A stretch of DNA of 64,000 nt from Fulvivirga sp. (GCA_028280565.1 JANQLQ010000260.1:20817-84816), one strand, 5' to 3'; positions 10,393 through 28,162 are shown, counted from the stretch's first letter. Numbers and translations: made by a program. Notes: generated from the letters alone by a model not told the origin.

Positions 10393-11843
10393 TTACGGGC
10401 ATAATAAAGACTGTCCAGTACCGGGATGGGAAAACTAGGGTCTGGGACCCGGGCAAAAACGAAGAGACTATCCGCCTTAGCGACCAGGCCCGGGTATTGT
10501 GGGGCCAAGTCGTTAGATTCTCCCGGATCATTGATAATATGATAAACTTCTATCGGGGCATCGTAATCCTGGCGAAGCACCTTAAAATCACCTAGCCTCA
10601 CTGCCTGGCGAAAATAGGAGCTGGTGCGGAACTCCCAGTACAAATTCGGTGTAGGATCCACCGTTCCTCCTTTCAGCACGCTTAAGAACGATTGCCCATC
10701 TGTTTTTTTGACCGTTTCCACACCCGCCAGCTCACAAAGTGTGGGCATTACATCCCAAAAGGCCCCTACATAATCGCTTTCAGACCCCGGCTTTACTACC
10801 CCCGGCCACTGGGCGATCATAGGCGTACGAATGCCCCCATCGTATACATCTCGCTTGTAACCACGCAAAGGAGCGTTGCTTTTAAAGAAATAAGGGTCAT
10901 GTCCCCCCTCTTTATGGTTTCCATTATCAGAGCTAAAAAGTACCAAGGTATTTTCGGCGAGCCCCGAGCTGTCCATGAAGTCCAGCAGCTCCCCGATCTT
11001 CCTATCCAGGTAAGACAAGCGGGCGGCATACTTCTTTTCTACCTCAGGCCAGTCCTTATCTTTGAAAGGCCCATAGTCCTGCTCAAATTCTATGGGATTA
11101 TGAACCGTTTTTAACGCCACATACACAAAAAAGGGTTGATCTGCCGGTGCCTCCATAAACTTTTTTGCCTCTTGCAGGTAAAACTCATCCACATATACAT
11201 TGGGTGAGTTCTCATTACCGGGAACGTCGATCACCTCGCCATTCTTATGGAGCTGGGCAGGATAAAATCCCCCGGACTGGATGCCTAGGGGGTTTTCGAT
11301 GATCGTTCCTATGGATACATCAAACCCTTTGTTCCACGCCATGCTATGCGCTACCCCCGGTTTCTCCAAGTGCCATTTTCCAAAATGCCCGGTACGGTAC
11401 CCTGCATTTTTCAAAAGCATCGCAATCGTGGTATCCGAAGGTTTGATCGCAATCCGCTCTTTAGGTGCCCCCACGGGATAAGACCTGTTGGCCCGGTTCG
11501 TGATATGCCCGGTATGCTGCCCGGTCATCAAGGCACCCCTAGACGGTGCACATACCGTGGAGCCCGCATAAAATTGGGTAAACCGCATCCCTTCTGCCGC
11601 CATTTTGTCGATGCGCGGGGTTCGAAGGACCTCTTGCCCGTAGCAGCCCAACTCACCGTACCCCAAGTCATCGGCTAGGATAAAAAGGATATTGGGGTTT
11701 GAAACGGGCGTTCCCTCTTTTGAGGACGGGGTCTGGCAACCCATATGGACAATGAACACGGAAAAAAGTAGTACTTTAAGAGGATGAAGGTGCATAACAA
11801 GTGTTACTATCGCTTTACCTGTTGACGTTTGAGTAAGCACCAT
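10389..11843 (-). CDS. Arylsulfatase (S1 family)
   Basis: CAPSR motif (STVCAPSRGALMTGQH). The likely start is the Met at 11795, which gives a signal peptide. There is a 4-nt overlap with the downstream sulfatase. Confidence 0.9.
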   Translation of the reverse strand: MVLTQTSTGKAIVTLVMHLHPLKVLLFSVFIVHMGCQTPSSKEGTPVSNPNILFILADDLGYGELGCYGQEVLRTPRIDKMAAEGMRFTQFYAGSTVCAPSRGALMTGQHTGHITNRANRSYPVGAPKERIAIKPSDTTIAMLLKNAGYRTGHFGKWHLEKPGVAHSMAWNKGFDVSIGTIIENPLGIQSGGFYPAQLHKNGEVIDVPGNENSPNVYVDEFYLQEAKKFMEAPADQPFFVYVALKTVHNPIEFEQDYGPFKDKDWPEVEKKYAARLSYLDRKIGELLDFMDSSGLAENTLVLFSSDNGNHKEGGHDPYFFKSNAPLRGYKRDVYDGGIRTPMIAQWPGVVKPGSESDYVGAFWDVMPTLCELAGVETVKKTDGQSFLSVLKGGTVDPTPNLYWEFRTSSYFRQAVRLGDFKVLRQDYDAPIEVYHIINDPGESNDLAPQYPGLVAKADSLFVFARVPDPSFPIPVLDSLYYARK

Positions 11844-12092
11844 ACCTGACAGCCGGGATATATTACCGGCTGGTAACTCACTTTTTATCTCGTCCTGTAC
11901 ACGTTACGTTGGCGCATATTCTCTCGACCTTTTAAACAATGAAATGCCCAGGAGGTATGAAGGGCCTCGGTTAAAAGCAGGTTCGGAGAACCTGTATATG
12001 GATAAGCACGGGTTTGAAAAACCCGCGCTAGGCCAGCAAATATTTTATTGATAACTTCTTTAACCAGCTCTAACCGGCCTTTAAATGGCTTT

Positions 12093-12405
12093 AACTGGCG
12101 CAAGTTTGCAACTTGTGATTTCTTTATGATCACTAGGGTTTGTAACCCGGCTAACAGGTAACAAAACCATAATCCTTAGACATATCCTATATCAATCCAA
12201 GCTGAAACTGCCCGTAGGCCAACAAAATAGCCGTCACTCGCTAAAAAACTATAGCCGTCGGTTGAAAGACTTCCCAGCGCAACCCCTGGCCCCTGATTTC
12301 CCCTTCACGGGGATTAAGGAGTGAGCGATGGCCATAGAATGGCTTAAACGGACGGCTATACCCAAAAAATAAGCGGCTATTTCTTTTTTGCATATGGGTA
12401 ATGAG
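12093..12405 (+). repeat. Family A structured repeat, copy A1 (with an internal inserted module at about 12240-12375)
   Basis: Head AACTGGCGCAAGTTTGCAACTTGTG...CACTAGGGTTTGTAACCCGGCTAAC and tail CTATTTCTTTTTTGCATATGGGTAATGA are shared with the other copies. Confidence 0.85.
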
Positions 12406-13366
12406 TTTGCTTGGTTTTGTAAAAAGAATCAATGTTCATACTCTCAACAGCTTTGTGAATAAAGGCTAAAAAAACGCTTAAACCAACCGCCATAGTCACA
12501 GGCTTGCACCGCGCCAGCGCAAGAAAAATTTAGACTAAAAAAATTTTACAGGAACACGGAACAATTCAGATTGCCCTAAGGTTAGGTTCTTTGGATGTTG
12601 GGGTTATATCAATATAAAATTGGCTAAGAACGTAGTTTTTGTAATTAATCTTATGCTTTCTTCGTGGGTCCTGGTCCATTCTTTACACCCGGCTCACCTA
12701 GATGGTCATCACATCTTCGCAAGTCTCGAAATAGAAGAAAAATCCGAAAATCTCGGAGAGGATAATGAAGATATCGATCAGTGCAAGCAAGACAATACTC
12801 TTTTCTTAAGTCAACCAAACCCCGGCCACAACACCTATACGTACACATCTCCTTACATTTCCTCATATAAGGTGCCCCCTAAACGTGTATCAATGCCATT
12901 TAAATAAGGCCAGCGCCCACCTAAAAACCCCTAAAGAGGAACCGGTGGATTGCACCCTTAGGGTAGAGGTGCGATGGGTGCGCTTATATTCATGGCATGG
13001 AAACACGTTTACCCTGCTAGCATTTTTATTCCTAAGTATTTTGAATTATCCAGGTAGGCCTCTCTACTGTGAGCTTAATCCAGTAAAGAACGGCTTGATT
13101 TACCCAAGTATTCATGCTCATTAAGGGTGTCTAGGAATAAAAGTTTGCTAAGCAGAAATCACCACTGAATTCATTTTTGACTCAACTAAACCCTTTATGT
13201 TATTTAAACCATCACAAGAAATTGGTGAGTAACAGGAAAGAAATTTTTCAATCCTTCTAAACAATGGAACATGACACTAGTATGGGGAGCTTTTCGGCAA
13301 TTGGCTGGAAAATGATAATGAATTCAGAACATTCTCAACCACAACATAATAAACAAAACGATAACA

Positions 13367-13981
13367 TTGATGAACGTTAAAATTTTTAAAGCTGGCATAG
13401 TATGCCTTGTAAGTTGTCTCCTATCCGTGTCACTCAAGGCACAGAACGAAAATGAGGATCGCACTTTATTCAAAAGTGGTAATTTTGAAAACCTCGGGGT
13501 GATGTTGGCACCAAGTTATGGTTACACAAGAATGGACGGGACGGGCGTTTCCCTAGCCAATATCCGTGCGGGTGTAATTGTACAAGAAAAGTTTACCTTC
13601 GGGGCCTTTTACGGATTTTCATTGAATGATATTGATCCGGAAAGTGAGACTGTAAATGGTATTTACATGGATTTTCGTTCATACGGGGGATTCGCCGAAT
13701 ATACCATTCGCCCTTCCGAACTCATTCATTTCAGCTTTCCGCTGTTCATAGGTGCCGGCGAGGTGGAAATGGATAACGATGAGGGAAGTGCAGGCCTGGG
13801 TGAGGAAAATTTTTTCCTGGTTGAACCGGGAGCACTGCTCGAAATTAACCTCCACAAATATGTCAGGTTCAACATTGGAGCAAGCTACCGCTTCGTGGGT
13901 GATATGAGCTACCGAAACATGAGTAGCTCAGATATCTCTGGGCTTACCGGCCAGGTAGGATTGAAATTTGGTGTTTTCTAA
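13367..13981 (+). CDS. Small outer-membrane beta-barrel-like protein, unknown function
   Basis: Signal peptide ending SLKAQ, an alternating aromatic/Gly pattern, and a C-terminal LKFGVF typical of an OM beta-signal. The ATG at 13370 is the likely start. Confidence 0.55.
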   Translation: MMNVKIFKAGIVCLVSCLLSVSLKAQNENEDRTLFKSGNFENLGVMLAPSYGYTRMDGTGVSLANIRAGVIVQEKFTFGAFYGFSLNDIDPESETVNGIYMDFRSYGGFAEYTIRPSELIHFSFPLFIGAGEVEMDNDEGSAGLGEENFFLVEPGALLEINLHKYVRFNIGASYRFVGDMSYRNMSSSDISGLTGQVGLKFGVF

Positions 13982-14020
13982 TAATTTTTCCAGCAGCTTA
14001 GTATAAACCCGCTGTTTCAA

Positions 14021-14056
14021 AGAGCCACGTTGGGACCTAGTACCCAGGGTGGCTCT
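14021..14056 (+). terminator. Candidate intrinsic terminator of the OMP gene
   Basis: AGAGCCAC ... GTGGCTCT stem followed by a T-rich tract (TTTACAACTTTT), 40 nt after the stop. Confidence 0.45.
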
Positions 14057-14080
14057 TTACAACTTTTAACCTTACCATCA

Positions 14081-14203
14081 TTGGCGCAAGTTTGTAACTT
14101 GTACATTATGATCACTAGGGTTTATAACCCGACCCACAGTTAGCAAAACTATCATCTTCAATTAATCCTATATCAATCTAACTCTACACAGGCCGGAGGC
14201 CTA
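14081..14203 (+). repeat. Family A repeat, copy A2
   Basis: TTGGCGCAAGTTTGTAACTTGT...CACTAGGGTTTATAACCCG...CCTATATCAATC...GGCCGGAGGCC. Confidence 0.8.
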
Positions 14204-14218
14204 AGACTTGACTTAACC

Positions 14219-14255
14219 CAACTGGCGCAAGTTTACAACTTGTGCCCTCTTTATT
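14219..14255 (+). repeat. Family A repeat, head-only fragment A3
   Basis: AACTGGCGCAAGTTTACAACTTGTGCCCTCTTTAT, then similarity is lost just before the GNAT stop codon. Confidence 0.7.
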
Positions 14256-14290
14256 TAAGTTGCGCTATGCTCAACTTAAACCAATTCAGT

Positions 14291-14698
14291 TTAATGTTCG
14301 TTACCCTTATAAATCCACATGGGCATTGTTTCTCCGGCTCTTTCAAAGCCGACTTTCTTGTAAAAATCGATTGCTTTTCCGTCAGCTGTTAACATTTGCA
14401 TATGGAAGTCTTTATATTTCTCTTGAAACTTATCTACAATCATATTGCCAATTCCTTTTCCCTGGTATTCAGGGTGAACTAATAAGTGCGGATAATAAAC
14501 CACCAAGTAACCGTCAGAGATTGCATTTCCAAGTCCGACTAATTTTTCTTTGTCCCAAGCAGTAATTAATGAATGAGAATTCAATAATGCATTTCTTAAT
14601 TCCCCAGGTTTTTCAGCAGAACTCCATTCGTTTGCTTTGTACAACTCAACAATTTGGTCCGTACTTATTTTCCTTGTTTCTGAAATTGTAATTTCCAT
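14291..14698 (-). CDS. GNAT family N-acetyltransferase
   Basis: 135 aa with the acetyl-CoA binding motif QGKGIGNMIV and a C-terminal FYKKVGF. Confidence 0.85.
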   Translation of the reverse strand: MEITISETRKISTDQIVELYKANEWSSAEKPGELRNALLNSHSLITAWDKEKLVGLGNAISDGYLVVYYPHLLVHPEYQGKGIGNMIVDKFQEKYKDFHMQMLTADGKAIDFYKKVGFERAGETMPMWIYKGNEH

Positions 14699-14795
14699 TT
14701 TCGATTTTTTTCAAGCTTGCACTGCCCCGTCCTAAAATAAGTTTACGGTAGTTAGTATTACTTGATCGTACTTATCTAATGTATCAAAATCACCC

Positions 14796-15090
14796 AACTG
14801 GTGCAAGTTTGCAACTTGTGCCCTGTTTATGGTCACTAGGGTTGGTAACCCGGCTAACCCGTGACTAAGACCCGGCAAAAATCACAAAATGAAGGCGGGT
14901 TTAATCTCGTGTTTTATATTTAATGCCTCAATTTTGAGCTTTTTACCCACTTGGCCGAGTCGCAGACTCTCTTTTCAACCCATGTAACAGGCAGCAAAAA
15001 AGCCATCCCTCGACAAACCCTATGTTAACCCAACCCGAAACCGGCCGGAGGCCAAAATGACTGTTTCTTTTTTACACGTAGGTGATCTGC
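14796..15090 (+). repeat. Family A repeat, copy A4 (carries a ~130-bp nested insertion at 14859-14988)
   Basis: Head AACTGGTGCAAGTTTGCAACTTGTG...GGGTTGGTAACCCGGCTAAC. The body resumes at ACAGGCAGCAAAA...CCGGCCGGAGGCC...TTTCTTTTTTACACGTAGGTGA. Confidence 0.8.
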
Positions 15091-15107
15091 TGCAGAGACC
15101 TGTCGGA

Positions 15108-15482
15108 TTACTCCTTCTCATAGTAAATCACATTTGCTTCCTCTACCCTTCCAAAATCGCTATCTGAACTGATGACCGGCACGTTTAAATATTGTGAGGT
15201 GGCTAAGATAATGCTGTCGGGCAATTTAATTCGTACTGATCGCCTGATCTTAATCACCTCTTCTTTAATCTTAGTATTGATATCGATGATAATACACTCA
15301 TCCAAAAAAGTGCGAATTTCATCCCGGTCCTGGACCGTGATATCTTTATAACCGAGTAATTCTAACTGGCTGATGAAGGATATGTAGATTTTCCTATTGT
15401 ACAAAAGGCTGCTCAACACTTCATCTCCTGAAAGAAGATAGAGTACTATGTTAGTATCCAATAAAACACTATTCCCATTCAT
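15108..15482 (-). CDS. vapC: PIN-domain toxin (VapC-type)
   Basis: LLDTNIVLYLL near the N-terminus and SSDSDF near the C-terminus carry the PIN acidic residues. It overlaps the upstream small gene. Confidence 0.8.
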   Translation of the reverse strand: MNGNSVLLDTNIVLYLLSGDEVLSSLLYNRKIYISFISQLELLGYKDITVQDRDEIRTFLDECIIIDINTKIKEEVIKIRRSVRIKLPDSIILATSQYLNVPVISSDSDFGRVEEANVIYYEKE

Positions 15483-15666
15483 CGCGCATTCGCTTTTGAA
15501 TAACTAAGGGGTCTTCTTTCAATTTTATTACCCCACAATACTTGTGAGTATCTACTCCTTTAGTTTCAAGAGCTTCTTGTAAAAGTTGAGATAATAGCGC
15601 TTTATCTGATCCCTTTTTGATAACTGTTACCATTGATGGTTTCCTTGTTTTTGTAAAGATAGTCAA
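15469..15666 (-). CDS. vapB: Antitoxin partner of VapC (VapB-type)
   Basis: Small ORF overlapping the vapC start by 14 nt. The KYCGVIKLKEDPLVIQKRMRDEW tail is recognised from partners of PIN toxins in Bacteroidota. The probable true start is the ATG at 15633. Confidence 0.6.
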   Translation of the reverse strand: MTIFTKTRKPSMVTVIKKGSDKALLSQLLQEALETKGVDTHKYCGVIKLKEDPLVIQKRMRDEWE

Positions 15667-15736
15667 TGTTTATACTTTGGACAGCTTTGAAAGCTAGGCA
15701 ACTGGTTTTTACTAATACATCATTTCCCCTAACCTT

Positions 15737-15935
15737 AGCTGGCGCTAGTTTGCAACTTGTGCCCTGTTTATGGTCACTAGGGTTTGTAACCCGGCTAACA
15801 GCCAGCAAAACCTCCATCCTCCGACAAATCCTATATCAATCCAACCCTACACCGGCCGGAAGCCTACCCAACAGCCGTCACTCACCAAAAGCCACCGACT
15901 GTTCCCTTTTTTGCACGCAGGTGACGACAGCAGGA
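15737..15935 (+). repeat. Family A repeat, copy A5 (apparently uninterrupted reference copy)
   Basis: GCTGGCGCTAGTTTGCAACTTGTG...GGGTTTGTAACCCGGCTAACAGCCAGCAAAACC...CCTATATCAATCC...CCGGCCGGAAGCC...CCCTTTTTTGCACGCAGGTGAC. Confidence 0.85.
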
Positions 15936-16238
15936 CTCATTTTGAAAACGAAAATTTTATCGCTACTCGTTTCAATTTTTGCGAGGGCAATAAAAAATTT
16001 TAAAGGCAACCTATCTGCCTGCGAGCTTCGGAAAATTTCAATCTCTACAAGGTGCAATTAACGATCTATGTGACTGACAATCAAAGCCCAGGCGGGGTTG
16101 AGGTTCCTGGAGCATCAGGCACTACACCCCAGGAGGTTCGCCAGGGAATGGAATCATGGGGGATGGAAGTACCCCACACCAGCTCCAGGGGACGGGCAAA
16201 ATTTATCAGTCAAAAATTAGAAATTATCAAAATCTCGC

Positions 16239-16246
16239 TAATTTAG
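16239..16246 (+). promoter_or_regulatory. Possible Bacteroidota -7 promoter element
   Basis: TAATTTAG is one mismatch from TAnnTTTG and lies a few nt upstream of the riboswitch 5' end. I saw no clear -33 TTG. Confidence 0.25.
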
Positions 16247-16249
16247 CCC

Positions 16250-16440
16250 CCGATTTTGGTTCCCGGGCATACTTCGGGATTAAAAGGGAATTCAGTGAAA
16301 ATCTGAAACTGTACCCGCAGCTGTAAAGTGTCATCAAAAGTTTTTGCATCGGTCCACTGTCTTGATTGATGGGAAGGAGCAAAAACCGACACAAGTCAGA
16401 AGACCTGCCTCAATCAACAGCATCCAGGCTTTCGGGTGAA
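16250..16440 (+). promoter_or_regulatory. Cobalamin (AdoCbl) riboswitch
   Basis: The GGTTCC...GGGATTAAAAGGGAA...GTGAAAATC...CCCGCAGCTGTAA core, GGTCCACTG...GGGAAGG, and the B12 box AAGTCAGAAGACCTGCC at 16393-16409 are all present. It lies directly upstream of the corrin operon. Confidence 0.9.
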
Positions 16441-16575
16441 AAGTACTGATCGTATAGACTATCCTTTTTCTGACCGGATCAGTTATCCCCGGTCGAGTGA
16501 TGGGTTGCCGGTATGATTCCTTGATATCCGTTCCTGGAAAGTTTGAATCCTAAACTACGGGAATAGAAATTTCAG

Positions 16576-17400
16576 ATGGGAAAAAACCTTGCTCAATCAA
16601 AAGTAACCTTTTATTTCTGCGATGGCGGGTCCTGCCGTAAAGCTGGTAGCGAAGCGGCCATTAGAAAAGCCCGGGCGCACCTGCGCAACAAAGGCCTTTG
16701 GGATGAGTCGCATACCATCAAGACCAAGTGCAACGGCCGCTGTGAGGATGCGCCCACCTGGATCGTACAATCGGGGGATTACTGGTACAAAGAGGTAGAT
16801 CCGGGGAAAGCCATCCGGATCATCGATGCACACTGCGATCACCAGCAACCTTTGGCTCCGGAATTGATCTTCCGCGAAGGGCAAGCGAAAGTCAACTCGG
16901 AGAAGGAGCCCCCCCCGGTAGCAACCCCGGTTTTCCAACGGGCGCAAGACGAAGAGTTGGGCGAAGTATACAAAGCCAGGGGTTTTCATTCCGACCAGTA
17001 TTTGTACGCCTTCTTCCTTTACCTGCAAGAAAACCCGGGAGAGACAGAACTCTCCCTACCCAATGGCACATCTTTCCCGTTTAACGACCTACGGTTTGTG
17101 GATTATACCGACATGTACCGGCTCAAACTTCACTTCGGGAAAGATGAAGAAGCCATTATCGAATTAGTCACTGCGCTGGTTCCCAAGACCGAGCCCGATG
17201 AACTGATCAAGCGGAAGGTCACCGTGTGCGAGCATTTTATACAAATAGCCACGGATCGTAAAGTGATCCGGTTGAAAGATAAGATGGGTAGATTGGTTAC
17301 TTCCCTGCAGATTGCGGCTACGGATGAAAAGACCTGGGAATATTGCCTGGAGATCCAGTTGAATAATGCCGTGGCGCCAAAAGTAACACTGGGTGCCTGA
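16576..17400 (+). CDS. Thioredoxin-like [2Fe-2S] ferredoxin domain protein with an uncharacterised ~170-aa C-terminal domain
   Basis: CDGGSC ... CNGRC (C-x4-C ... C-x3-C) pattern in the first ~60 aa. It is the first gene after the B12 riboswitch. Confidence 0.65.
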   Translation: MGKNLAQSKVTFYFCDGGSCRKAGSEAAIRKARAHLRNKGLWDESHTIKTKCNGRCEDAPTWIVQSGDYWYKEVDPGKAIRIIDAHCDHQQPLAPELIFREGQAKVNSEKEPPPVATPVFQRAQDEELGEVYKARGFHSDQYLYAFFLYLQENPGETELSLPNGTSFPFNDLRFVDYTDMYRLKLHFGKDEEAIIELVTALVPKTEPDELIKRKVTVCEHFIQIATDRKVIRLKDKMGRLVTSLQIAATDEKTWEYCLEIQLNNAVAPKVTLGA

Positions 17401-18946
17401 GCTAAAGCACATAGCCATTCTTGGATTAGGCTGGTTGGGACTGCCATTGGCGAAGGCCTTACATCAGCAAGGATACAAGGTCCAGGGCTCTGTAAGCTCC
17501 CTCGATAAATTCCATGAACATAGCAACCTTCCTTTTGGAGTGACCAGGATCAGGGTAAAAGAGCATGAAATAGAAGGGGACTGGGAGGCCTTTTTATTCA
17601 ATATGCAGGTCCTCGTCATTAACATACCTCCTTTAAGAGAGAAAAAGGTGGAGTATCGGTATCCCGCTTTGATGGATCAAATCACCAAGCATACACCCCC
17701 TGGCCTGAAGATCATATTTGCCAGTACCACGGGCGTATATGCCAACGAAGGACAGCGGGTCAACGAATCCATTCGTCCCAATCCGTCCAAACCTTCGGGA
17801 AAAGCCGTGCTGTACGCTGAAAATAAGTTAAGGGAGCACTTCGGAAAAAACTTATCCATCCTGAGACTGGCAGGGCTGATCGGGGAAGATCGACATCCGG
17901 GCAGGTTTTTAGCTTCTAAGCGAGCGTTAAGAAATGCAGAAGCACCAGTAAATCTCGTGCACCAGCAAGATTGTATCAGCGTCATCCAAAAAGTGCTGCA
18001 ACGCAACTGCTGGGGAGAAAAGATCAACGTATGCGCCAGTAAGCACCCGGTCAGGAAAGAATTTTACCAAAAGGCATCGGCAGTGCTGGGGTTGGACCCC
18101 CCGCATTTTAAAAGCTCCGATAAAGCTGATTTCAAAATAGTGGACAACACCTACAGCCGGAAACTCCTCGGGCATGAATACCTGTATGATGATCCCGAGG
18201 ACATTTTTACCAAAAAGCACCCGGGAAAAATAAGCATTGTAGGAGCAGGCCCCGGGGATGTAGACCTGTTGACACTGAAAGCCTTTCAAACCATCGTGGA
18301 AGCGGATGTCATTTTGCATGATAACCTGGTCTCTCCGCAGATCCTTGCGCTCAACCCTAACGCGGAATTAAGTTATGTGGGCAGGAAATATGGGGACCAG
18401 TCAGACCAGAAAGATCGGCAGAGGATCATCAACGAATTGCTACACGACCATTATAAGCAGGGCAAGCGGGTGGCCAGGCTCAAGTCAGGCGACCCCTACA
18501 TCTATGGACGTGCCGCAGAGGAAGCCCGCTTTTTGAAAGAGCGTAATGTCCCATTCCAAGTAGTTCCCGGCATTTCTGCCGCCCTTGCGGCTGCTAACCT
18601 GAATAACATCCCCGTAACGGAACGCAATCACTCCAATGCGCTGATGATCTGCACAGCCCATACGGCAGATTATTCATTCGAACAGCTCAATGGAGTGGCA
18701 GCATTACTGAAAGCGGGTAATACACTGGCCATTTACATGGGGCTGAAAAGCCTGGATAAGCTGATCCCCAGGCTGATAGAAGTGTGTGAGGATGATACCA
18801 TCCCCATCAACGCGATTTCCAACGTATCGAGGGAAAATGAACAGCTCCTTAGCTCGACTTTGGGAGCCATAAGAAATGACGTTTTAGAAGCAAAACTGCC
18901 TATGCCAGTGGTTTTCCTGGTAGGCGCTAGATCTATTGACAAATGA
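17393..18946 (+). CDS. cobA: Fusion: Rossmann NAD(P)-binding (epimerase/SDR-like) domain plus uroporphyrinogen-III C-methyltransferase (SUMT)
   Basis: The N-terminus has ILGLGWLGLPLAKAL. From about residue 270 it reads IVGAGPGDVDLLTLKA...RLKSGDPYIYGR...VVPGISA, which is typical of SUMT/CysG-C. Confidence 0.85.
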   Translation: MPELKHIAILGLGWLGLPLAKALHQQGYKVQGSVSSLDKFHEHSNLPFGVTRIRVKEHEIEGDWEAFLFNMQVLVINIPPLREKKVEYRYPALMDQITKHTPPGLKIIFASTTGVYANEGQRVNESIRPNPSKPSGKAVLYAENKLREHFGKNLSILRLAGLIGEDRHPGRFLASKRALRNAEAPVNLVHQQDCISVIQKVLQRNCWGEKINVCASKHPVRKEFYQKASAVLGLDPPHFKSSDKADFKIVDNTYSRKLLGHEYLYDDPEDIFTKKHPGKISIVGAGPGDVDLLTLKAFQTIVEADVILHDNLVSPQILALNPNAELSYVGRKYGDQSDQKDRQRIINELLHDHYKQGKRVARLKSGDPYIYGRAAEEARFLKERNVPFQVVPGISAALAAANLNNIPVTERNHSNALMICTAHTADYSFEQLNGVAALLKAGNTLAIYMGLKSLDKLIPRLIEVCEDDTIPINAISNVSRENEQLLSSTLGAIRNDVLEAKLPMPVVFLVGARSIDK

Positions 18947-19875
18947 AGGAAGGAATACTTTTTTGCGGACACGGTAGCAGGAGAAAAAGCGGCACAGAAG
19001 CTTTCAAAGAACTGATCGCTATTCTCAAAAAGCGATACCCCGGCTACGAGGTGGACTATGGCTTTTTGGAATTCAATCATCCTGTGTATGAAGCGGCCGT
19101 AGAACGAATGTACCAAAAAGGGATACGTAAGATCTACGCCCTGCCGGTCATCCTCTTTGCCGGCGCGCATGCCAAAAACGACATTCCCTATGAGCTCAAT
19201 ACCATCCAGGGCCGTTACGATGACTTGGACATTGTGATGGGCAGACCTATCGGGGTGAGCGCTTTTTTACTGGACCTTTCCAAAAAGATACTGGACGAAA
19301 GAGAGCAGGAACTGGTACCTATGGATCGAAAAGATACCTGCCTGGTCGTGGTAGGCAGAGGAACGACCGATCCGGATTCCAATTCTGATGTACACAAACT
19401 GTGCAGCATGATCTGGGAGGGTATGGGGTATGGGTTTGCTACCGTTGGCTACAGCGGCACCACCTACCCCTCCGTGGCCGAGGCGCTTCAGCTCACAGAA
19501 AAGCTGGGCTTCAAAAGGACCATCGTGATCCCATTCTTCTTCTTTACCGGGGTATTGCTGGAAAGGATTTACAAGACCGTAGAAGACCATGATGTCAATG
19601 CCTCTTCGGAGTATGTGTATACGCGAGCTTTTGGTACGGACGAGTACATCCTGAAAGCATTTGATGAACGACTGCAGGAAGCAAAACAAGGCACCGGTAA
19701 TATGAACTGTCAACTGTGCAAGTACCGGAGACAAATCATTGGTTTCGAAGAAGAACAGGGAAGCGACCAAGTAGGCCATCACCTGAATGTGAAAGGGATC
19801 CTGTTTGAAGAAGATGAGAAGGTAGCAGGGAAAAAAGGAGTAGGAAAAGCCCTGAAGAAAATACTGGGGATATGA
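18943..19875 (+). CDS. cbiX: Sirohydrochlorin cobaltochelatase, long form (CbiX-L type)
   Basis: Duplicated chelatase halves (FCGHGSR; VVGRGTTDPDSNSD) and a C-terminal MNCQLC motif plus an HH/charged tail. 4-nt overlap with the upstream gene. Confidence 0.85.
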   Translation: MKEGILFCGHGSRRKSGTEAFKELIAILKKRYPGYEVDYGFLEFNHPVYEAAVERMYQKGIRKIYALPVILFAGAHAKNDIPYELNTIQGRYDDLDIVMGRPIGVSAFLLDLSKKILDEREQELVPMDRKDTCLVVVGRGTTDPDSNSDVHKLCSMIWEGMGYGFATVGYSGTTYPSVAEALQLTEKLGFKRTIVIPFFFFTGVLLERIYKTVEDHDVNASSEYVYTRAFGTDEYILKAFDERLQEAKQGTGNMNCQLCKYRRQIIGFEEEQGSDQVGHHLNVKGILFEEDEKVAGKKGVGKALKKILGI

Positions 19876-20612
19876 TAGCAGAACCAGCTAAGTACATACC
19901 GGCAGGCAAAATTACCGGGGTATCGCTCGGGCCCGGAGATCCCGATCTGATCACCGTAAAAGGGCTCCAAGTGCTGAAGGAAGCCGACAAAATATATTTC
20001 CCGGGGTCACAATTCAGCGATGGGAGAAAAGACAGCTATGCCCTTTCTATCCTCAAACACTATGACCTGGACCCGGCAAAGTGGGAAGGCTTTTACCTTA
20101 GCATGAGCCTCGAAAGAAAGGAGGCCCGCTCACTCTATGAAAGGATTTTTTTGAACATCAAACAAGACTATGAAAAGGGGCTGGGTATCGCCATCGTCAG
20201 CGAAGGAGATGCCAGTACCTATAGCTCCTTTTCCTATTTACTCACTCATCTGCAAGACGCGAACTTACCCGTCAGTGTAATACCCGGCATCACCTCTTAC
20301 GCTTTGGCGGCAGCCATCCATGCCAATCCCTTGTGCATACAGGGCGAGAGAATGGTCATACTTCCCAGGGTGAAGAGTGTAGCGGAATTACAGCAAAGCC
20401 TTCGGCATTTTGATACGGTAGTCTTGATGAAGATCCGATCGGTGATGCCTGTCATCCTGGAAGCGCTGGAGAGTACACCAGTAGCTGTTTTTTATGGTGA
20501 GCGCTTAGGGGCTGAAAAACAGTTCATCAGCATGGACATAGCAGAGATCCGGGAAAGGGAGATTCCTTACTTCGCACTATTGATCATAAAGACAATGCCG
20601 GAAGCCATATGA
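19872..20612 (+). CDS. cbiL: Cobalt-factor II / precorrin-2 C20-methyltransferase
   Basis: GVSLGPGDPDLITVKGLQVLKEAD tetrapyrrole methylase signature, position in the operon, and 4-nt overlaps on both sides. Confidence 0.85.
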   Translation: MIAEPAKYIPAGKITGVSLGPGDPDLITVKGLQVLKEADKIYFPGSQFSDGRKDSYALSILKHYDLDPAKWEGFYLSMSLERKEARSLYERIFLNIKQDYEKGLGIAIVSEGDASTYSSFSYLLTHLQDANLPVSVIPGITSYALAAAIHANPLCIQGERMVILPRVKSVAELQQSLRHFDTVVLMKIRSVMPVILEALESTPVAVFYGERLGAEKQFISMDIAEIREREIPYFALLIIKTMPEAI

Positions 20613-22000
20613 AGATAACAGTAGCAGGTATCGGGCCGGGAAACGAACAGTACATCTTACCACTGGTGCAGCAGGCTGCGCTTGCCGCGGATGTGGTCAT
20701 TGGCTATACCTATTATTTCCAGTTTATTGAGCAGTTCATTTCGGAAGATGCCCAAAAGATCCCCATGTCGATGGGGACGGAAGAAGATAGAGCAGCACTT
20801 GCCCTGTCTGAAGCAAAAGAAGGGCGAACAGTCCTCGTGATAGGCTCAGGGGATGCAAGCATCTATTCGATGGCCTCCATTGTTTATGAATTAGCCTCCA
20901 AGCAAAAAGCAGACGGTATTGAACTGGAGACCTTGCCGGGGATCTCTGCCTTCCTGGCCGTGGGAAGTAAATTGGGCGCTCCCCTCGGACATGATTTTTG
21001 TTGCATATCCCTGTCTGACCTGATGACCCCTTGGAGGGTGATCGAGAAAAGGATCAGGGCTGCGGCAAGCGGCGACTTTGTTACCAGCATTTACAACCCC
21101 AAGAGCAAGAAAAGGTACTGGCAACTGGACCGGCTCAAGGAGCTTTTCCTGGAGCAGCGCCCAGGAGGTACTCCTGTGGCCATTGCCCGGCAAGTCACCC
21201 AGCCGGAAGAAAGTATCCGGCTCACTACACTGTCCGACCTCGATACAAATGACGTTGACATGTTCAGCCTGGTCATGATCGGTAACTCACAGACTTACCA
21301 ATACAAAAACCACCTGGTCACACCGCGAGGATATTTGAACAGGAAGCCCCAAACCGGGGAAGAGATACAGCGGGAGAGCTTCCGAATCGTAGCCAGCCAC
21401 CTGCAAGGCATGTCCATGGATCTTGCGGATAAATGGGCGGTCATGAGGGTCATCCATACCACTGGCATTTTGGAAGACCATCAATGGTACAAAGCCACAA
21501 AAGGAGCGATCTGCAAATGGCATGATTTTTTGAAAAATGGCGGCGATATTATCACCGATGTAACCATGGCCAGGTCAGGGGTCACCAAGAGATACGTCCA
21601 AAAATATGGCGTAAGCGTACACTGCTTCCTGGATGATGATGAGGCAGTCAAATCAGCGTGGGAGTTGCAGATCACCCGTTCGCAAGCAGGTATCCGGAAG
21701 GCCATGAGGCTATATCCGAATGCGCTGTACGTAATTGGTAATGCGCCCACCGCTTTGATGGACCTTACGGATGAACTGCTCGTGAATGAAAACTTCAAAC
21801 CGGCAGGGATCATCGGTGCGCCGGTGGGTTTTGTTAATGTCATTGAAGCCAAAACCCAGCTGGCACAGGCCGTGGTGGACCATGTGATCATGGAAGGTAA
21901 CCGGGGAGGAAGCAACGTAGCGGCAGCCATCGTCAATGCCGCTTTTACCCTGGAAGAGGCCCAGGCCTATTTTCAAAAAGCATCAACAGGGCAATTTTGA
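20609..22000 (+). CDS. cbiH-cbiC: Fusion: cobalt-precorrin-3 C17-methyltransferase (CbiH) plus precorrin-8 methylmutase (CbiC)
   Basis: The N-terminal half has GIGPG and HDFCCISLSDLMTPW (CbiH). The C-terminal half has VIGNAPTAL and GNRGGSNVAAA (CbiC/CobH). Confidence 0.85.
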   Translation: MKITVAGIGPGNEQYILPLVQQAALAADVVIGYTYYFQFIEQFISEDAQKIPMSMGTEEDRAALALSEAKEGRTVLVIGSGDASIYSMASIVYELASKQKADGIELETLPGISAFLAVGSKLGAPLGHDFCCISLSDLMTPWRVIEKRIRAAASGDFVTSIYNPKSKKRYWQLDRLKELFLEQRPGGTPVAIARQVTQPEESIRLTTLSDLDTNDVDMFSLVMIGNSQTYQYKNHLVTPRGYLNRKPQTGEEIQRESFRIVASHLQGMSMDLADKWAVMRVIHTTGILEDHQWYKATKGAICKWHDFLKNGGDIITDVTMARSGVTKRYVQKYGVSVHCFLDDDEAVKSAWELQITRSQAGIRKAMRLYPNALYVIGNAPTALMDLTDELLVNENFKPAGIIGAPVGFVNVIEAKTQLAQAVVDHVIMEGNRGGSNVAAAIVNAAFTLEEAQAYFQKASTGQF

Positions 22001-23211
22001 GACAAGCACGCCAACATATCGATTACTATTTGATAGGGATCGGGTACTCCGGCCTGCATCTTACTGGCGGACAGATGCCGGAGATCCTAAAACAGCATCG
22101 TGTATTTTCAGGAGGAGACAGGCACTACACGATCGTTAAAGCTTTTTTACCAGGAAACCACTGCTGGATCCCTGTGAAAGGAAATATGGAAGAGGTCATC
22201 CAGGCTTATGAGCAGGTTGGAGAGACAGTGGTAATATTTGCTTCAGGCGACCCCTATTTCTTTGGGTTTGGCAACACCTTAAAGCGACTAAGGCCCGAAG
22301 CGAAGGTGCACTCCTTTCCTTATTTTAACTGTATACAGCTGCTCAGCCACCAGGTGCAATTCAATTATTCTGAAATCTCCACGGTTTCCGTGCATGGCAG
22401 AAGCTGGGACAAACTAGATGAAGCCCTGGTCGCGGGAAACAATTCGATCGGCGTCCTGACCGATCAGCAAAAATCACCCGCAGCCGTTGCAAAGCGACTG
22501 TTGGAGTACGGCTTTACCCATTACCGGATGATCCTTGGCGAAGAGCTGGAAAGTCCCGACCAGCAAATAAATTCGCTCTCACTTCATGAAGCTGCAGTCT
22601 ATGAAAGCAAAGTCGTGAATTGCCTCATCCTGGAAAAGACAGGAACACCCGGGAATATTGGCCTTGGCATAAAAGATGACCGCTTTGCTTCCTTACCCGG
22701 AAGGCCTGGGATGATCACCAAGCGACCGGTTCGTCTTACCACCATTTCCACCCTAGAGCTGGGCAATGCCAACGTATTTTGGGATGTCGGAAGCTGTACC
22801 GGGTCAATCGCAATTGAAGCCAAACGGCTGTTTCCTGCGTTGAAAACCATCGCCTTTGAAAAAAGGACCGAATGCGAAAGCATCATCCGGCAAAACATGA
22901 GGAAGTTCCAATGCCCGGGGGTCCAGTTGGAGATCGGCGACGTATTTGAAATGGATTTGGAAGCATTGCCAAAGCCCGATACGCTCTTTATCGGCGGACA
23001 TGGAAACCGCCTGGTCGAGATGATCCGGCTCATGGACCAATACCTGCGGCCCGGTGGTCGCATGCTGATGAATACTGTCAAGGAGGATTCTGCTAAAATC
23101 TTTTTTGAAGTATGCCAGCAATTGGGCTACCAGGCCGAGCCGCCAGTGGCCATTACAGTCGACACCCACAATCAAATTAAAGTATTAAGCGCCTGCAAAG
23201 CAGAGATATGA
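21997..23211 (+). CDS. cbiET: Fusion: precorrin-6 C5,15-methyltransferase/decarboxylase (CbiE-CbiT, CobL-like)
   Basis: The N-terminal half is a tetrapyrrole methylase. The C-terminal half carries a class I SAM-MTase motif (VFWDVGSCTGSIAIEA). Confidence 0.85.
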   Translation: MRQARQHIDYYLIGIGYSGLHLTGGQMPEILKQHRVFSGGDRHYTIVKAFLPGNHCWIPVKGNMEEVIQAYEQVGETVVIFASGDPYFFGFGNTLKRLRPEAKVHSFPYFNCIQLLSHQVQFNYSEISTVSVHGRSWDKLDEALVAGNNSIGVLTDQQKSPAAVAKRLLEYGFTHYRMILGEELESPDQQINSLSLHEAAVYESKVVNCLILEKTGTPGNIGLGIKDDRFASLPGRPGMITKRPVRLTTISTLELGNANVFWDVGSCTGSIAIEAKRLFPALKTIAFEKRTECESIIRQNMRKFQCPGVQLEIGDVFEMDLEALPKPDTLFIGGHGNRLVEMIRLMDQYLRPGGRMLMNTVKEDSAKIFFEVCQQLGYQAEPPVAITVDTHNQIKVLSACKAEI

Positions 23212-25049
23212 AAAAAATACACATCATAGCGACCACAGACAGGGGTATAGCGCTGGGAAGAAAATTGCAAATGGAAATTCCCAAGTCTGTAGTAGTTACA
23301 ACGCGCAAGACCCCCGATGAGCACATCTCACAGGTCGACAGTATAGCGGCTTTCCTGTCCGGGTATTTTCAAAAAACGGATGCATTCATTTTTATTACCT
23401 CTCTTGGGGCTTGCGTGAGGCTGATCGCCCCTTACCTCGCGGATAAGTCAACCGATCCGGCAGTCCTATGTATGGATGATCATGCCCGGTTTGTACAATC
23501 GGTGGTGGGAGGACACCAGGGAGGCGCCAATCAACTGGCTGCCAAAGTATCAAAAGTATTTGGAGCACAGGCTGTCGTCAGCACTTCCAGCGATCTGCAA
23601 GGCATTTGGGCGCTGGATACGCTTGGAGAACAGTTCGACTGGCATACCGAGTTTTCTACGGATCCTAATGCTATCATCTCGGCTTTCGTCAACAATGCGC
23701 CTACCGGTTTGCTCCTGGAGGTCGATACCAAAGGCACCCGGTACCTGGAAGAAACCGTGCCGGACTTTGTAGAGGTGTTTTACGATGCGGAAGAGATGGA
23801 TTGCAGTAAGTTCAGCCTCTTGCTAGCAGTGACCTATAAGTCATACCCATTGGATATTCCTACTGTTCACTTCTACCCGAAAGTGCTTTCGCTGGGAACA
23901 GGTTGCTCTAAAGAGCTGGATCCCGAGCTTTTTGCACAAAGCCTTCGCGAGCAACTGGCTGCACAAGGTCTGTCATTTCATGCGATAAAATCGTTCGGCT
24001 CGATCGACCTCAAAAAAGACCAGCAAGCTTATGTCCAGTTCAGCAAGGATACTAACATACCCTTTCACACCTTCGGCAAGGAAGAGATCGATACGGTGAA
24101 AGTCCCCAATCCCAGCGAGGTGGTCCGGTCAAAGATCGGGGTAGACGGGGTGTCGGAATCCCTGGCCATGCTCTTATCTGGAAACACTACATTGCTGGTC
24201 GAGAAGCAAAAGATCACACTGGACAATGGTCATAAATTCACTTATGCCATCGCCCTGGACCACGAAGTGACCAGGAAGCCTTCCATTACCATTGTGGGAG
24301 CAGGTCCCGGGGACGAAGAGCTGATCTCTGTTAAAGGGAAAAAACTATTAGAACAAGCGGATTGCGTATTGTATGCGGGCAGCCTGGTACCAGAAGAAAT
24401 GACTTCATGGTGCAAAGAGGGGGCTGTGGTTAGAAATTCTGCTGCTATGACCCTTGAAGAGCAAATGGCCCTGGTGCAAGAGCATTACCACAAGGGGCAT
24501 AACATTGTGCGGCTACACTCTGGCGACCCTTCCATTTATGGCGCTATCCAGGAGCAAATGACTTTGTTCGATGAGTTGGGGATGGAATACTTCATCGTGC
24601 CGGGCATTTCTTCCTTCAATGCAGCCGCGGCCGTATTAAAATCGGAATTTACCATTCCCGAAGTGGTGCAGACTATCATCATTACAAGAGGAGAAGGTAA
24701 AACGCCTTTACCGAAAAATGAGAAACTGGAGGAAATGGCCAAATTGAAAGCGACCATTTGCCTCTTCCTAAGCGCCGGCATAGCCGCCAAAGTACAGGAG
24801 CAAATGCTGAAGTACTATGAACCGGAAACACCTGTTGCGGTGCTCTATCGCCTCACGTGGAAAGATGAAGAAGTCTATACCGGGACATTACAAAACCTGG
24901 CGGAACTCGTGAAGGCGAGTAAGAAAACCAGGACGGTACTGATCGTGGTGGGACACGCGATCCACGCCCGGAAAAACCGCTCAAAGCTGTACAGCCCGGG
25001 GTGGAAACACATTTTCCGGACACAAAAGAAATTCACGCTCAAAGCGTAA
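23208..25049 (+). CDS. cbiGF: Fusion: CbiG (cobalt-precorrin-5A hydrolase) plus cobalt-precorrin-4 C11-methyltransferase (CbiF)
   Basis: ~345-aa CbiG-like N-terminal region, followed by ITIVGAGPGDEELISVKG...VLYAGSLV...RLHSGDPSIYGA (CbiF). Confidence 0.85.
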   Translation: MKKIHIIATTDRGIALGRKLQMEIPKSVVVTTRKTPDEHISQVDSIAAFLSGYFQKTDAFIFITSLGACVRLIAPYLADKSTDPAVLCMDDHARFVQSVVGGHQGGANQLAAKVSKVFGAQAVVSTSSDLQGIWALDTLGEQFDWHTEFSTDPNAIISAFVNNAPTGLLLEVDTKGTRYLEETVPDFVEVFYDAEEMDCSKFSLLLAVTYKSYPLDIPTVHFYPKVLSLGTGCSKELDPELFAQSLREQLAAQGLSFHAIKSFGSIDLKKDQQAYVQFSKDTNIPFHTFGKEEIDTVKVPNPSEVVRSKIGVDGVSESLAMLLSGNTTLLVEKQKITLDNGHKFTYAIALDHEVTRKPSITIVGAGPGDEELISVKGKKLLEQADCVLYAGSLVPEEMTSWCKEGAVVRNSAAMTLEEQMALVQEHYHKGHNIVRLHSGDPSIYGAIQEQMTLFDELGMEYFIVPGISSFNAAAAVLKSEFTIPEVVQTIIITRGEGKTPLPKNEKLEEMAKLKATICLFLSAGIAAKVQEQMLKYYEPETPVAVLYRLTWKDEEVYTGTLQNLAELVKASKKTRTVLIVVGHAIHARKNRSKLYSPGWKHIFRTQKKFTLKA

Positions 25050-25052
25050 GAG

Positions 25053-25814
25053 ATGATACTGGTATTTGGAGGAACTACAGAAGGAAAACAAGTAGCAGCA
25101 CTGCTGGAGGAATTGCAGCGCACCTACCTGTATTCCACCAAAGCCAGCACAAAGAGTGTGGTCAAAAACACCGGGGTCCAGGTCCAAGGGGCATTGGATG
25201 AACATCAGATGACGAACCTGTGCCAGGACAAAAATATCCGGCTGATCATTGATGCGGCACATCCTTTTGCCGTGGTCCTGCATAAGACCATTTTCAACGT
25301 TTCATGTGCATTGAATACTCCGCTCGCAAGATTTGAAAGAAAAGAGGAGGCGCGTATGGCACATCCGCTGGTACACTATGTTGCTGGTTATGATGAGGCC
25401 ATTGCCGCGCTAAGGCGGATCGGGAGTCCCACTTTACTCGCTTTAAGCGGTGTCCAATCCATCCCATATTTATCGGGCTACTGGAAAAAAACCGTCACCT
25501 GGTCCAGGATCTTGGACCGGGCCGGGTCGGTTGCCCTGGCAGCACATCACCAGTTTCCGGCAGAAAGACTGATCCTGGGCTACCCTTCAGCACATGTAGA
25601 GGAAGAGGAGGCGTTGTACAGGCGGCTGAAAATCGGGGCGGTACTTACCAAGGAAAGCGGCAATAGTGGCGGGCTAATGGTTAAAATGAAGGCAGCTACC
25701 AGCGCTGGCATCCCGATATTCGTCATCAAAAAGCCGAAATTACCCGCCTATGACCTGGTTGTGAATGATACCGGAGAGTTAAGACAGGTACTTTCTAAAA
25801 TGGGATGCCTATGA
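25053..25814 (+). CDS. cbiJ: Cobalt-precorrin-6A reductase
   Basis: MILVFGGTTEG N-terminus, ~250 aa, and operon context. Confidence 0.85.
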   Translation: MILVFGGTTEGKQVAALLEELQRTYLYSTKASTKSVVKNTGVQVQGALDEHQMTNLCQDKNIRLIIDAAHPFAVVLHKTIFNVSCALNTPLARFERKEEARMAHPLVHYVAGYDEAIAALRRIGSPTLLALSGVQSIPYLSGYWKKTVTWSRILDRAGSVALAAHHQFPAERLILGYPSAHVEEEEALYRRLKIGAVLTKESGNSGGLMVKMKAATSAGIPIFVIKKPKLPAYDLVVNDTGELRQVLSKMGCL

Positions 25815-26902: not shown

Positions 26903-26907
26903 ATATA

Positions 26908-27618: not shown

Positions 27619-27696
27619 AACCACCTGGCAAACATTTGCCCGTCTATCCATCCACCGCAATTCAAAGGCAGGACAAACCCCCAAACCCCAACCCTC

Positions 27697-27950
27697 AACT
27701 GGCGCAAGTTTGCAACTTGTGCCTTCTTTATGATAACCAGGGTTTGTAACCCGGCTAAAAGATGGCAAAAACCTCCACACCTCGACAAATCCAATATCAA
27801 TCCAAACCAACACCGGCCGGAGGCCCACACAATGGCCGTTACTCACCTAAAGCAATAGCCGTCAGTTAAGGACTTCCCAGCGAAACCCCTAACCACTGAA
27901 GGGGCAATCCATCGCACCTTTAGTCCACTCTTGAAAGATTCCTGTCGACA
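27697..27950 (+). repeat. Family A repeat, copy A6 (with an appended module at about 27850-27950)
   Basis: AACTGGCGCAAGTTTGCAACTTGTG...CCAGGGTTTGTAACCCGGCTAAAAG...CCAATATCAATCC...CCGGCCGGAGGCC. Confidence 0.85.
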
Positions 27951-28158: not shown

Positions 28159-28162
28159 TACT

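Follow-up and report, generated by a model that had tools for sequence, protein, structure and literature searches.

Between the sulfatase cluster and the cobalamin (B12) operon of an uncultured marine member of the Cytophagales, the stretch of DNA analyzed here (Fulvivirga sp., JANQLQ010000260.1:20817-84816; 64,000 nucleotides, hereafter the window, numbered from its first letter) carries a series of small accessory genes separated by copies of one repeat, which we call family A. The genes encode a putative small outer membrane protein (OMP), a GNAT acetyltransferase, and a VapBC toxin-antitoxin (TA) pair. We find that this locus, from 12093 to 15925, is a genuine strain-variable, cassette-like array bounded by a single repeat family, and that it is a hot spot of exchange of a nonintegron type. 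As to the host, identical or near-identical proteins occur in TARA metagenome assemblies, Logan assemblies, and four NCBI metagenome-assembled genomes (MAGs), the cluster mates carry the label "Cytophagales bacterium," and the closest named relatives of the neighboring core proteins are only 45-67% identical.

Family A has five copies within 12093-15925 and two further ones at 27697-28165, all on the + strand, and direct-repeat and motif searches recovered the same family as did a profile derived from its members. By the profile, the array copies lie at 12091-12249, 14076-14204, 14217-14254 (head only), 14793-14872 together with 14973-15065, and 15734-15897; those on the far side of the B12 operon, at 27694-27858 and 28007-28165, came out of the profile, direct-repeat, and motif searches. 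Head motifs of 20 and 22 nt had 7 and 6 matches, respectively, at up to 3 mismatches, compared with 0.00 expected from 100 shuffles. The profile search confirmed the positions and the uniform orientation of the copies listed in the first-pass annotation, but that list of five lacked the tandem pair at 27697-28165, and the copy it placed at 14796-15090 proved to be a composite, in which a head (to 14872) and a partial tail (14973-15090) enclose the remnant of a second type of right-hand module (14873-14972).

The order of elements in the family is hairpin 1 (GGCGCAAGTTTGCAACTTGTGCC), CTCTTTAT, GATCAC with hairpin 2, and a tail of 130-280 nt. Spelled out, a full copy begins with AACTGG, hairpin 1 (GGCGCAAGTT TGC AACTTGTGCC), CTCTTTAT, and GATCAC and continues with hairpin 2 (AGGGTT TGT AACCC), GGCTAACAG..., hairpin 3 (GGCCGGAGGCC), and, further on, TTTTTTGCACGCAGGTGAC. 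The stem of hairpin 1 measures 10 bp, and its 3-nt loop varies in sequence (TGC, TGT, TAC, TAT, or GGC); with the T-rich spacer behind it, the hairpin obtains a terminator-like score on the + strand. All three hairpins are able to fold as DNA or RNA. The earlier description of the repeat as structured applies to these short hairpins but not to any larger conserved fold, none of which was found: whole copies compared with shuffles gave a z of ~0, and alignment folding gave a covariation term of -0.12. Single-nucleotide polymorphism (SNP) mosaics are present among the copies. In Rfam, the repeats had no match at gathering or permissive thresholds, with only the cobalamin riboswitch (16240-16426) and two tRNAs passing, and a permissive scan of 11900-16300 gave no repeat match below an E value of 0.1. 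A group II intron origin of the repeats was rejected, as they match no intron model and show no GUGYG start. Literature searches on the hairpin sequence and on integron-like cassettes of Bacteroidota likewise found no match to this architecture.

Read from the sulfatase side, the array opens with a lone left half-site, S1 (12093-12127, + strand), made up of hairpin 1 (GGCGCAAGTTTGCAACTTGTG) and ATTTCTTTAT, with the unit boundary at 12127|12128. Unit 1 (12128-14109, +) starts with a type 1 right-hand module, LE1 (12128-12402), carries the putative OMP gene (13370-13981, +; 203 aa, with a signal peptide) and then an inverted repeat (14014-14063), and ends in hairpin 1 plus ACATTAT (14081-14109). 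Unit 2 (14110-14254, +) is an empty unit of 145 nt, consisting of GATCAC, hairpin 2, hairpin 3 (GGCCGGAGGCC), hairpin 1, and CTCTTTAT. Unit 3 (14255-14830, - strand), between Units 2 and 4, has a left edge of a third type (TTAAGTTGCGCTAT and its hairpin, 14255-14280), the GNAT gene (14291-14698, -), and hairpin 1 plus CTGTTTAT at its end (14796-14830). Unit 4 (14831-15771, -) begins with a remnant of the type 2 module, LE2 (14831-14972), followed by a partial LE1 with its tail (14973-15090), vapC (15108-15482, -; PIN/VapC), vapB (15469-15633, -; a 54-aa partner), and hairpin 1 plus CTGTTTAT (15737-15771). On the right, the array is closed by a lone LE1 half-site (15772-15925, +) with GGTCAC, hairpin 2, hairpin 3, and the tail TTTTTTGCACGCAGGTGAC, and the B12 leader comes next. 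The three gene units predicted in the first pass are real open reading frames (ORFs), and the GNAT and VapBC assignments stand, but the beta-barrel match of the OMP is sub-threshold only (E = 0.014).

Part of Unit 1, from 12405 to 13366, had been described as a slot holding no convincing gene. It does hold an 84-aa ORF (12653-12907), which is called as a gene in all compared loci spanning the position except L023 and L024, as well as a relic of a vapB-type 5' region (12405-12455). This 51-nt stretch directly follows the LE1 tail of the first copy, corresponds to the start of vapB and its upstream region, and is 82% identical to 15639-15689; its sequence suggests that the apparently empty slot once held a TA unit that has since decayed. 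Close to the relic, at about 12495-12520, the DNA is similar to the distal part of LE2 (AGTCAyAGGCTkGCrC).

Co-occurring strains show directly how variable the array is. Exact-protein look-ups yielded about 40 contigs of the same species, whose shared DNA is 96-100% identical, and the sulfatase-to-B12 interval takes at least nine forms among thirty-odd independent metagenome and MAG contigs. In the direction from sulfatase to B12, allele a (L043/L044) has vapBC as its sole unit, with Units 1 to 3 absent as a block; allele b, the window, has OMP, the empty 145-nt unit, GNAT, and vapBC; and allele c (L004/L010) has OMP, empty-145, GNAT, and an empty 92-nt unit. A unit encoding a TPR protein and a 172-aa protein appears in allele d (L003), which reads OMP, empty-145 minus 42 nt, TPR+172aa, and GNAT, and is lacking from the otherwise similar allele e (L009). 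Allele f (L021) is the longest list, with OMP, empty-145, TPR+172aa, GNAT, a four-gene block (Lactamase_B, 185 aa, 217 aa, and HTH), and vapBC; allele g (L020) is like it without vapBC; allele h (L001/L022) has OMP, empty-145, GNAT, and the Lactamase_B block; and in allele i (L006), GNAT is followed by an empty 357-nt unit and then a unit with PIN-153, 53-aa, and 57-aa genes. The TPR, Lactamase_B, and PIN-153 units are thus additions that other strains carry in the same slots. Per unit, the gene content ranges from 0 to 4 (TA pairs, GNAT, TPR, a metallo-beta-lactamase-fold block, and the small OMP), and empty versions of 92, 145, 313, and 357 nt coexist with cargo-bearing ones.

Five of the alleles (a, c, d, f, and g) were obtained from at least two samples or assemblers apiece (L003 together with L005/L007/L008, L004 with L010, L043 with L044, and L020 and L021 each with a second contig), and long contigs of 70-131 kb span the whole array; these five alleles are therefore not assembly chimeras. 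Coverage of the window allele is piecewise only and is provided by contigs from one run; alleles e, h, and i are each known from one sample. One irregularity concerns a MAG contig end in L003 (6946-7041, to the left of the region upstream of OMP), which resembles window 61351-61446, 47 kb away, at 94% identity and reflects either a rearrangement or a chimeric contig end. Within the Lactamase_B block of L021 (13458-13573, -; also in L001, L020, and L022), adjoining a truncated LE2 module, lies a group II intron D1-D4-2 fragment (63.7 bits, against a gathering score of 36), for which neither an intron domain V/VI nor a reverse transcriptase was found. A motif shared by cargo units, GGTAACGkCCrGrTAAGCwCmGTGAGCATmsCC, occurs near gene ends in L021 (~11140-11190 and ~12615-12650) and on the reverse strand of L006 (~905-930).

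Where these strains differ, the majority of unit edges and junctions are located in the heads or tails of repeats. The first-pass annotation had named as a test whether presence/absence breakpoints fall inside the repeats, and they do, with vapBC absent from L003, L004, and L020 and OMP and GNAT absent from L043/L044. The junctions also have a common anatomy. Left halves are of type A (hairpin 1 + CTCTTTAT), of type B (GCAAGTTAC...AACyTGCArGAATyTGAAGAT), or, at the end of the Lactamase_B block, hairpin-less (...CCACGCCCTTTTTAT). Among the right halves, LE1 (130-280 nt) and LE2 (~230 nt) start in the same way, with GATCAC + hairpin 2, and LE3 begins TTAAGyTrCGyTAT. The combinations seen are A|LE1, A|LE2, A|LE3, B|LE3, and hairpin-less ...GCCCTTTTTAT|LE1, and in all five the similarity switches at one and the same nucleotide. 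To the left of it stands a short hairpin (core GCAAGTT-loop-AACTTG, usually the 10-bp hairpin 1) and then ~8 nt, of which the last two are AT; in L006, the empty-357 unit is closed by another B-type left half, with TTAAGCTACGTTAT (TTAAGyTrCGyTAT) after it. In both arrays of the window, the present one and the tandem pair past the B12 operon, the first element is a left half on its own and the last is an LE1 on its own, so that n units have n+1 sites. All copies obtained at these two loci share one orientation; the sole reverse copy, an isolated one in a variable region of L030/L034, also has the phase of hairpin 1 and then LE.

The TPR+172aa unit supplies a joint of a different kind from those expected of repeats recombining with each other. 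Its presence or absence switches exactly at window 14254|14255, across which the window reads ...GCAAGTTTACAACTTGTGCCCTCTTTAT|TTAAGTTGCGCTATGC, that is, ...GCAAGTTTACAACTTGTGCCCTCTTTAT|TTAAGTTGCGC. At the same site, L003 reads ...CTCTTTAT|GATCACTAGGGTTTGTAACCC...(cargo)...AAAGCAAGTTACGAACCTGCAAGAATTGAAGAT|TTAAGTTGCGCTATGC, and the arrangement in L003, L020, and L021 can be written ...CTCTTTAT|GATCAC-LE2...TPR,172aa...GCAAGTTACGAACCTGCAAGAATTGAAGAT|TTAAGTTGCGC. The insertion left no duplication apart from an ambiguous AT. Because the right junction of the unit and hairpin 1 have the GCAAGTT...AAC.TG core alone in common, homologous recombination cannot explain this joint.

Homologous recombination between repeat copies is nonetheless at work in the same array, as L020 (below) shows, and two hybrids are compatible with it. 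L003 has one hybrid site, which joins the left part of the 14796 copy to the right part of the 15737 copy by a crossover between ...TAGTG and TTTATG, and in L043 the half-site at 12093 is fused to the unit starting at 14831, with the crossover inside the common 62-nt head.

On balance, we favor the view that the units have defined ends and are moved, or were until recently, by a trans-acting, hairpin-directed enzyme that joins them 3' of the hairpin, with homologous recombination adding to the shuffling. We infer such an enzyme, and with it a single-strand mechanism, from the exact ...AT| joint between unrelated half-sites and from the reassortment of half-site types at one nucleotide. The enzyme would be encoded elsewhere in the genome, would recognize the hairpin, and would cut a few nucleotides 3' of it; candidate activities on single-stranded DNA are those of an integron-integrase-like protein or of an HUH/Y1 protein, whether IS200/IS605-like or like the RAYTs, the transposases associated with repetitive extragenic palindromic (REP) sequences. 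As type 1 units end in hairpin 1 + TTTAT, every insertion would recreate its own target, which would explain why the arrays have one orientation and n+1 sites for n units.

Several observations weigh against this view. The exact nonhomologous joint represents one event only, albeit one seen in several strains. The loss of vapBC in L020 came about through a crossover ~80 nt into LE1, away from the junction, and is plain homologous recombination. L004/L010 lack window 14884-15732, L003/L009 lack 14128-14169 (42 nt, in the empty unit), and in the window itself the LE2 remnant is fused to about position 52 of an LE1; these three indels have the look of microhomology deletions, and the two joints that were checked share few bases. 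The distance from the foot of the hairpin to the joint is 8 nt in A sites and 13-14 nt in B sites, and the stems of the hairpins show conservation rather than covariation. At 27.7 kb, the second locus is unvarying, with two tandem copies in 10 of 10 covering contigs. The family is rare in public data, where one strict head pattern found 4 stretches among 185,579 species representatives, none from the host species. A sister species carries the vapBC core (15098-15685) at 89% identity but without family A. Finally, neither an integrase, nor a transposase, nor an HUH protein was found in the 64-kb window, and no recombinase or transposase was found in any cargo block. These results come from Pfam scans of 40 window ORFs and 11 cargo proteins of other strains, in which the only cargo domains were HTH, PIN, TPR, and Lactamase_B; the remaining window genes from 1 to 28 kb were covered through precomputed Pfam families on L018 and L020. 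They agree with the first-pass annotation, which had seen no integrase or transposase in the window. Homologous, illegitimate, and one apparently site-directed event are thus all represented at the locus.

Much of this could be accommodated without any dedicated enzyme. The locus may be a passive hot spot, a mosaic of small hairpins in a permissive low-GC island that resembles REP sequences, bacterial interspersed mosaic elements (BIMEs), or miniature inverted-repeat transposable elements (MITEs), in which units come and go only by RecA-type recombination, by homology-facilitated illegitimate recombination after DNA uptake, and by microhomology deletion, and whose repeats are possibly useful as + strand terminators or insulators. 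We regard this as a credible account, if not the one that we would expect to hold, and it accounts for most events: recombination inside the repeat is seen directly in L020 versus L021, the S1xS3 and S3xS4 hybrids can be reconciled with it, three apparent microhomology deletions fall within the same 4 kb, and SNP mosaics among the copies indicate frequent gene conversion. The lack of a recombinase in the window and cargo scans, the terminator-like hairpin 1 on the + strand 80 nt past the B12 operon, and the occurrence of sister-species TA modules amid other GC-rich hairpin mosaics all fit as well. What it leaves unaccounted for is the TPR-unit joint, which has no homology on its right side and yet lies at the equivalent point after a GCAAGTT...AAC.TG hairpin; moreover, half-site types shuffled at a single nucleotide imply modules with defined ends, and the single orientation at both loci and the units + 1 sites of each array also count against passive exchange. 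A more specific proposal, which we consider unlikely, is that the units are nonautonomous IS200/IS605-type elements, similar to palindrome-associated transposable elements (PATEs) or mobile insertion cassettes and served in trans by a Y1 HUH transposase, with GATCAC + hairpin 2 as the left end, a hairpin + N8-13 + AT as the right end, and single-strand insertion 3' of a TTTAT behind hairpin 1. The subterminal hairpins, the absence of terminal inverted repeats and of target duplication beyond the ambiguous AT, the oriented insertion beside a hairpin + TTTAT that itself occurs solo in other taxa, and the empty 92-, 145-, 313-, and 357-nt forms alongside cargo-bearing ones speak for it. In IS608, a guide sequence 5' of the hairpin recognizes the cleavage sequence, so that the two are predicted to covary; here they do not (AACT goes with TTAT, but TAAA/CAGA goes with AGAT). 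A solo insertion in the LE...RE phase was not seen, the isolated copies all being of the hairpin-1-then-LE phase, and no TnpA was found in the window or cargo scans.

The array is not an integron. An integron cassette array proper, or a cluster of attC sites lacking an integrase (CALIN), with its integrase outside the window, would match the same-orientation sites at all junctions, the small cargo including TA and GNAT genes, and the variation in content at the population level, but we consider it scarcely credible. The attC sites of integrons are imperfect palindromes, 57-141 nt in length, in which R'' (RYYYAAC) and R' (GTTRRRY) boxes enclose paired L''/L'. A search of both strands of 12000-16000 for attC-like sites (RYYYAAC...GTTRRRY with L''/L' pairing) found 0, against a shuffle mean of 0.015, and GTTRRRY is absent from the junction sequences. 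Exchange takes place at ...CTCTTTAT|GATCAC (...TTTAT|GATCAC) or ...GAAGAT|TTAAG and not at the integron G|TT; the conserved part, 130-280 nt, is mainly to the right of the exchange point; the genes mostly point away from the hairpin site; units have up to four genes; and no integrase is in view. The first-pass annotation had suggested either repeat-mediated exchange of cassettes at a locus outside the described integron architecture or a REP/BIME-like hot spot, and this reading is supported, both by the variation of units at the repeats and by the lack of attC-like sites. It is also very improbable that the allelic diversity is an artefact of chimeric joins at repeats during assembly. Contigs do break frequently in the repeats (L002, L018, L019, and L012/L013), and there is the L003 contig end that matches window 61351-61446, but the five independently recovered alleles and the 70- to 131-kb contigs across the array argue otherwise.

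The second locus lies past the last gene of the B12 operon (27697-28165, +), with hairpin 1 located 80 nt past the operon. It consists of a left half with hairpin 1 + TTCTTTAT (27697-27731), an empty unit of 313 nt (27732-28044), and a terminal LE1 (28045-28165). The entire cobalamin operon, 15772-27731, is bracketed in a unit-like manner: LE1 precedes it, and hairpin 1 + TTTAT follows it. A bolder extension of the enzyme-based view, which we put forward tentatively and think doubtful as it stands, is that marine Bacteroidota possess a cassette-capture system distinct from integrons, in which units of 0-4 genes are excised and inserted 3' of hairpin 1 + TTTAT by an enzyme acting in trans. Each unit would have a hairpin half-site at one boundary and a GATCAC/TTAAG half-site at the other, and with the target recreated at every insertion, arrays would be extended in a single orientation; the 12-kb cobalamin operon would itself be unit-like, and 12128-28044 would be one array occupying what was originally one site, with the sulfatase cluster on one side and phoX on the other. 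The sulfatase-phoX adjacency was sought in a relative, and synteny was lacking at the closest phoX homologue that came with its context (L049, 69% identity).

The cargo looks acquired. The GC content of the array is 0.38-0.44, compared with 0.48-0.52 in the flanking sulfatase and B12 genes, and the GNAT protein is 86-90% identical to proteins from Aquimarina (WP_299442841.1), Marivirga lumbricoides (WP_188460100.1), and a Flavobacteriales MAG (MCB9426130.1), far above the identity of the core neighbors to such taxa. The GNAT similarities point to recent horizontal spread of this gene across orders of Bacteroidota. In the sister species, whose first B12 protein is 88% identical, an aspartyl-tRNA synthetase gene and different GC-rich hairpins are upstream of the operon, and neither a family A copy nor any of the three units was found there; the repeats and the units are thus both missing from the position, rather than the units being invariant without the repeats. 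The sister-species vapBC instead has a ParE pair on one side and a HEPN-nucleotidyltransferase gene on the other, with other hairpin mosaics in between, and gene modules therefore move, though not always with these sites. In this run of modules (L047 2849-6265), vapBC is a pseudogene, the mosaics between the modules consist of GC-rich hairpins of other kinds (for example, GTCATGCCATGAC and CCCGAAGGG), and one stretch of it is similar to the hairpin 3 region of family A. Near a vapC homologue in a Cyclobacteriaceae MAG (81% identity), family A repeats were not found.

Parts of the repeat do occur elsewhere. Hairpin 1 + TATTTATAG (TATTTAT) is found solo in a Saprospiraceae MAG (L011 4283-4310) and in an unrelated metagenome contig (L016 1906-1932), where a 416-aa ORF, conceivably a transposase gene, adjoins it, and the flanks of these two copies are near-identical (GCTGGCGCAAGTTTGCAACTTGTGCCnTATTTATAG). 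In a Flammeovirgaceae MAG, hairpin 1 + LE2 occurs at two contig ends, ~80% identical across ~220 nt. The head pattern had 1 real match in JGI metagenomes, plus 2 chance matches inside one coding sequence, and none in PLSDB plasmids; three patterns had no match in IMG/VR, where a GNAT relative was likewise not found. Beyond the two repeat loci, a second strain-variable region starts at window 30225, inside a SusD-like remnant (29687-30040). In other strains (L030 11345-16711 and L034), it holds a degenerate reverse copy of family A, a GerE regulator, and a 772-aa Peptidase_S74 protein.

To our knowledge, no system other than integrons is well understood as a means of stockpiling and shuffling single-gene cassettes, and we know of none comparable that has been described for marine Bacteroidota. 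The present locus offers at least nine arrangements of one array in a natural population, with junctions defined to the nucleotide. Should an enzyme recognize the hairpin junctions, it would represent a second, independent solution to cassette capture and provide a handle on how TA and other accessory genes circulate in uncultured marine Bacteroidota. Should there be no enzyme, the array would be a clean natural case of a short mosaic repeat turning an intergenic region into a modular exchange site by way of homologous and illegitimate recombination.

Compared with known systems, the array most readily recalls sedentary chromosomal integrons and CALINs. Like them, it strings accessory units (TA pairs, acetyltransferases, and unknowns) head to tail with a hairpin site in one orientation at each junction, includes empty and decayed cassettes, differs in content between close strains, and has a GC content below that of its flanks. 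Unlike them, it has no R''/L''...L'/R' architecture, no G|TT, and no intI or attI nearby; its site couples a short, near-perfect hairpin to a long conserved module across the exchange point, its genes are mostly oppositely facing, and its units can be multigenic. Tycheposon-type tRNA islands are also variable marine arrays with direct repeats of an attachment sequence between cargo blocks, but their repeats are tRNA 3' fragments and they bring their own tyrosine recombinase, neither of which is in the array here. The pdif modules of Acinetobacter plasmids, which depend on XerC/XerD, are similar in that small accessory modules, often TA modules, lie between short sites and encode no recombinase. 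The pdif sites are 28-bp XerC-spacer-XerD sequences, alternating inverted and plasmid borne, whereas those of the array are direct, hairpin based, and chromosomal. By eye, the exchange point is the center of an imperfect palindrome of 21 bp (CCCTnnTnAT-G-ATnAnnAGGG, 7 of 10 pairs), but B sites are without it, and the sites are direct repeats, unlike Xer/dif-type sites, in which a 6-bp spacer separates two arms of 11 bp and the orientation alternates.

Among small repeats, MITEs are a poor match, as full copies show no inverted-repeat relationship between head and tail and have no duplication at their flanks. REP sequences are imperfect palindromes of ~20-40 nt. The likeness to REP/BIME sequences and their RAYTs (REPtrons) lies in short GC-rich palindromes (hairpins 1, 2, and 3) set in intergenic mosaics, in one orientation, capable of termination, and acting as recombination hot spots, with the hairpin 1 module also solo in other genomes. 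The array differs from them in its composite repeat of 150-300 nt, its defined internal exchange point, its exchangeable gene units, and its apparently low copy number, and no RAYT was found in the 64-kb window or the ±10-kb loci. With IS200/IS605 elements and PATEs it has in common subterminal hairpins for ends (GATCAC + hairpin 2 on the left; hairpin 1 or the B hairpin + 8-14 nt on the right), no target duplication, oriented insertion at a short sequence, and miniature versions. Units always follow ...T(T)AT, yet the 5'-of-hairpin sequences do not covary with the cut sequence. The array departs from these elements in carrying cargo instead of a transposase, in having isolated copies in the junction (RE-LE) phase, and in showing no evident pairing between guide and cleavage site, and no TnpA was found in the window or cargo scans. 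In sum, variable islands delimited by repeats are, like cassette arrays, a known kind of locus, while the architecture of this site and its host lineage are undescribed in the Rfam and literature searched, and the array shares features with both the REP/BIME and the IS200/IS605 groups.

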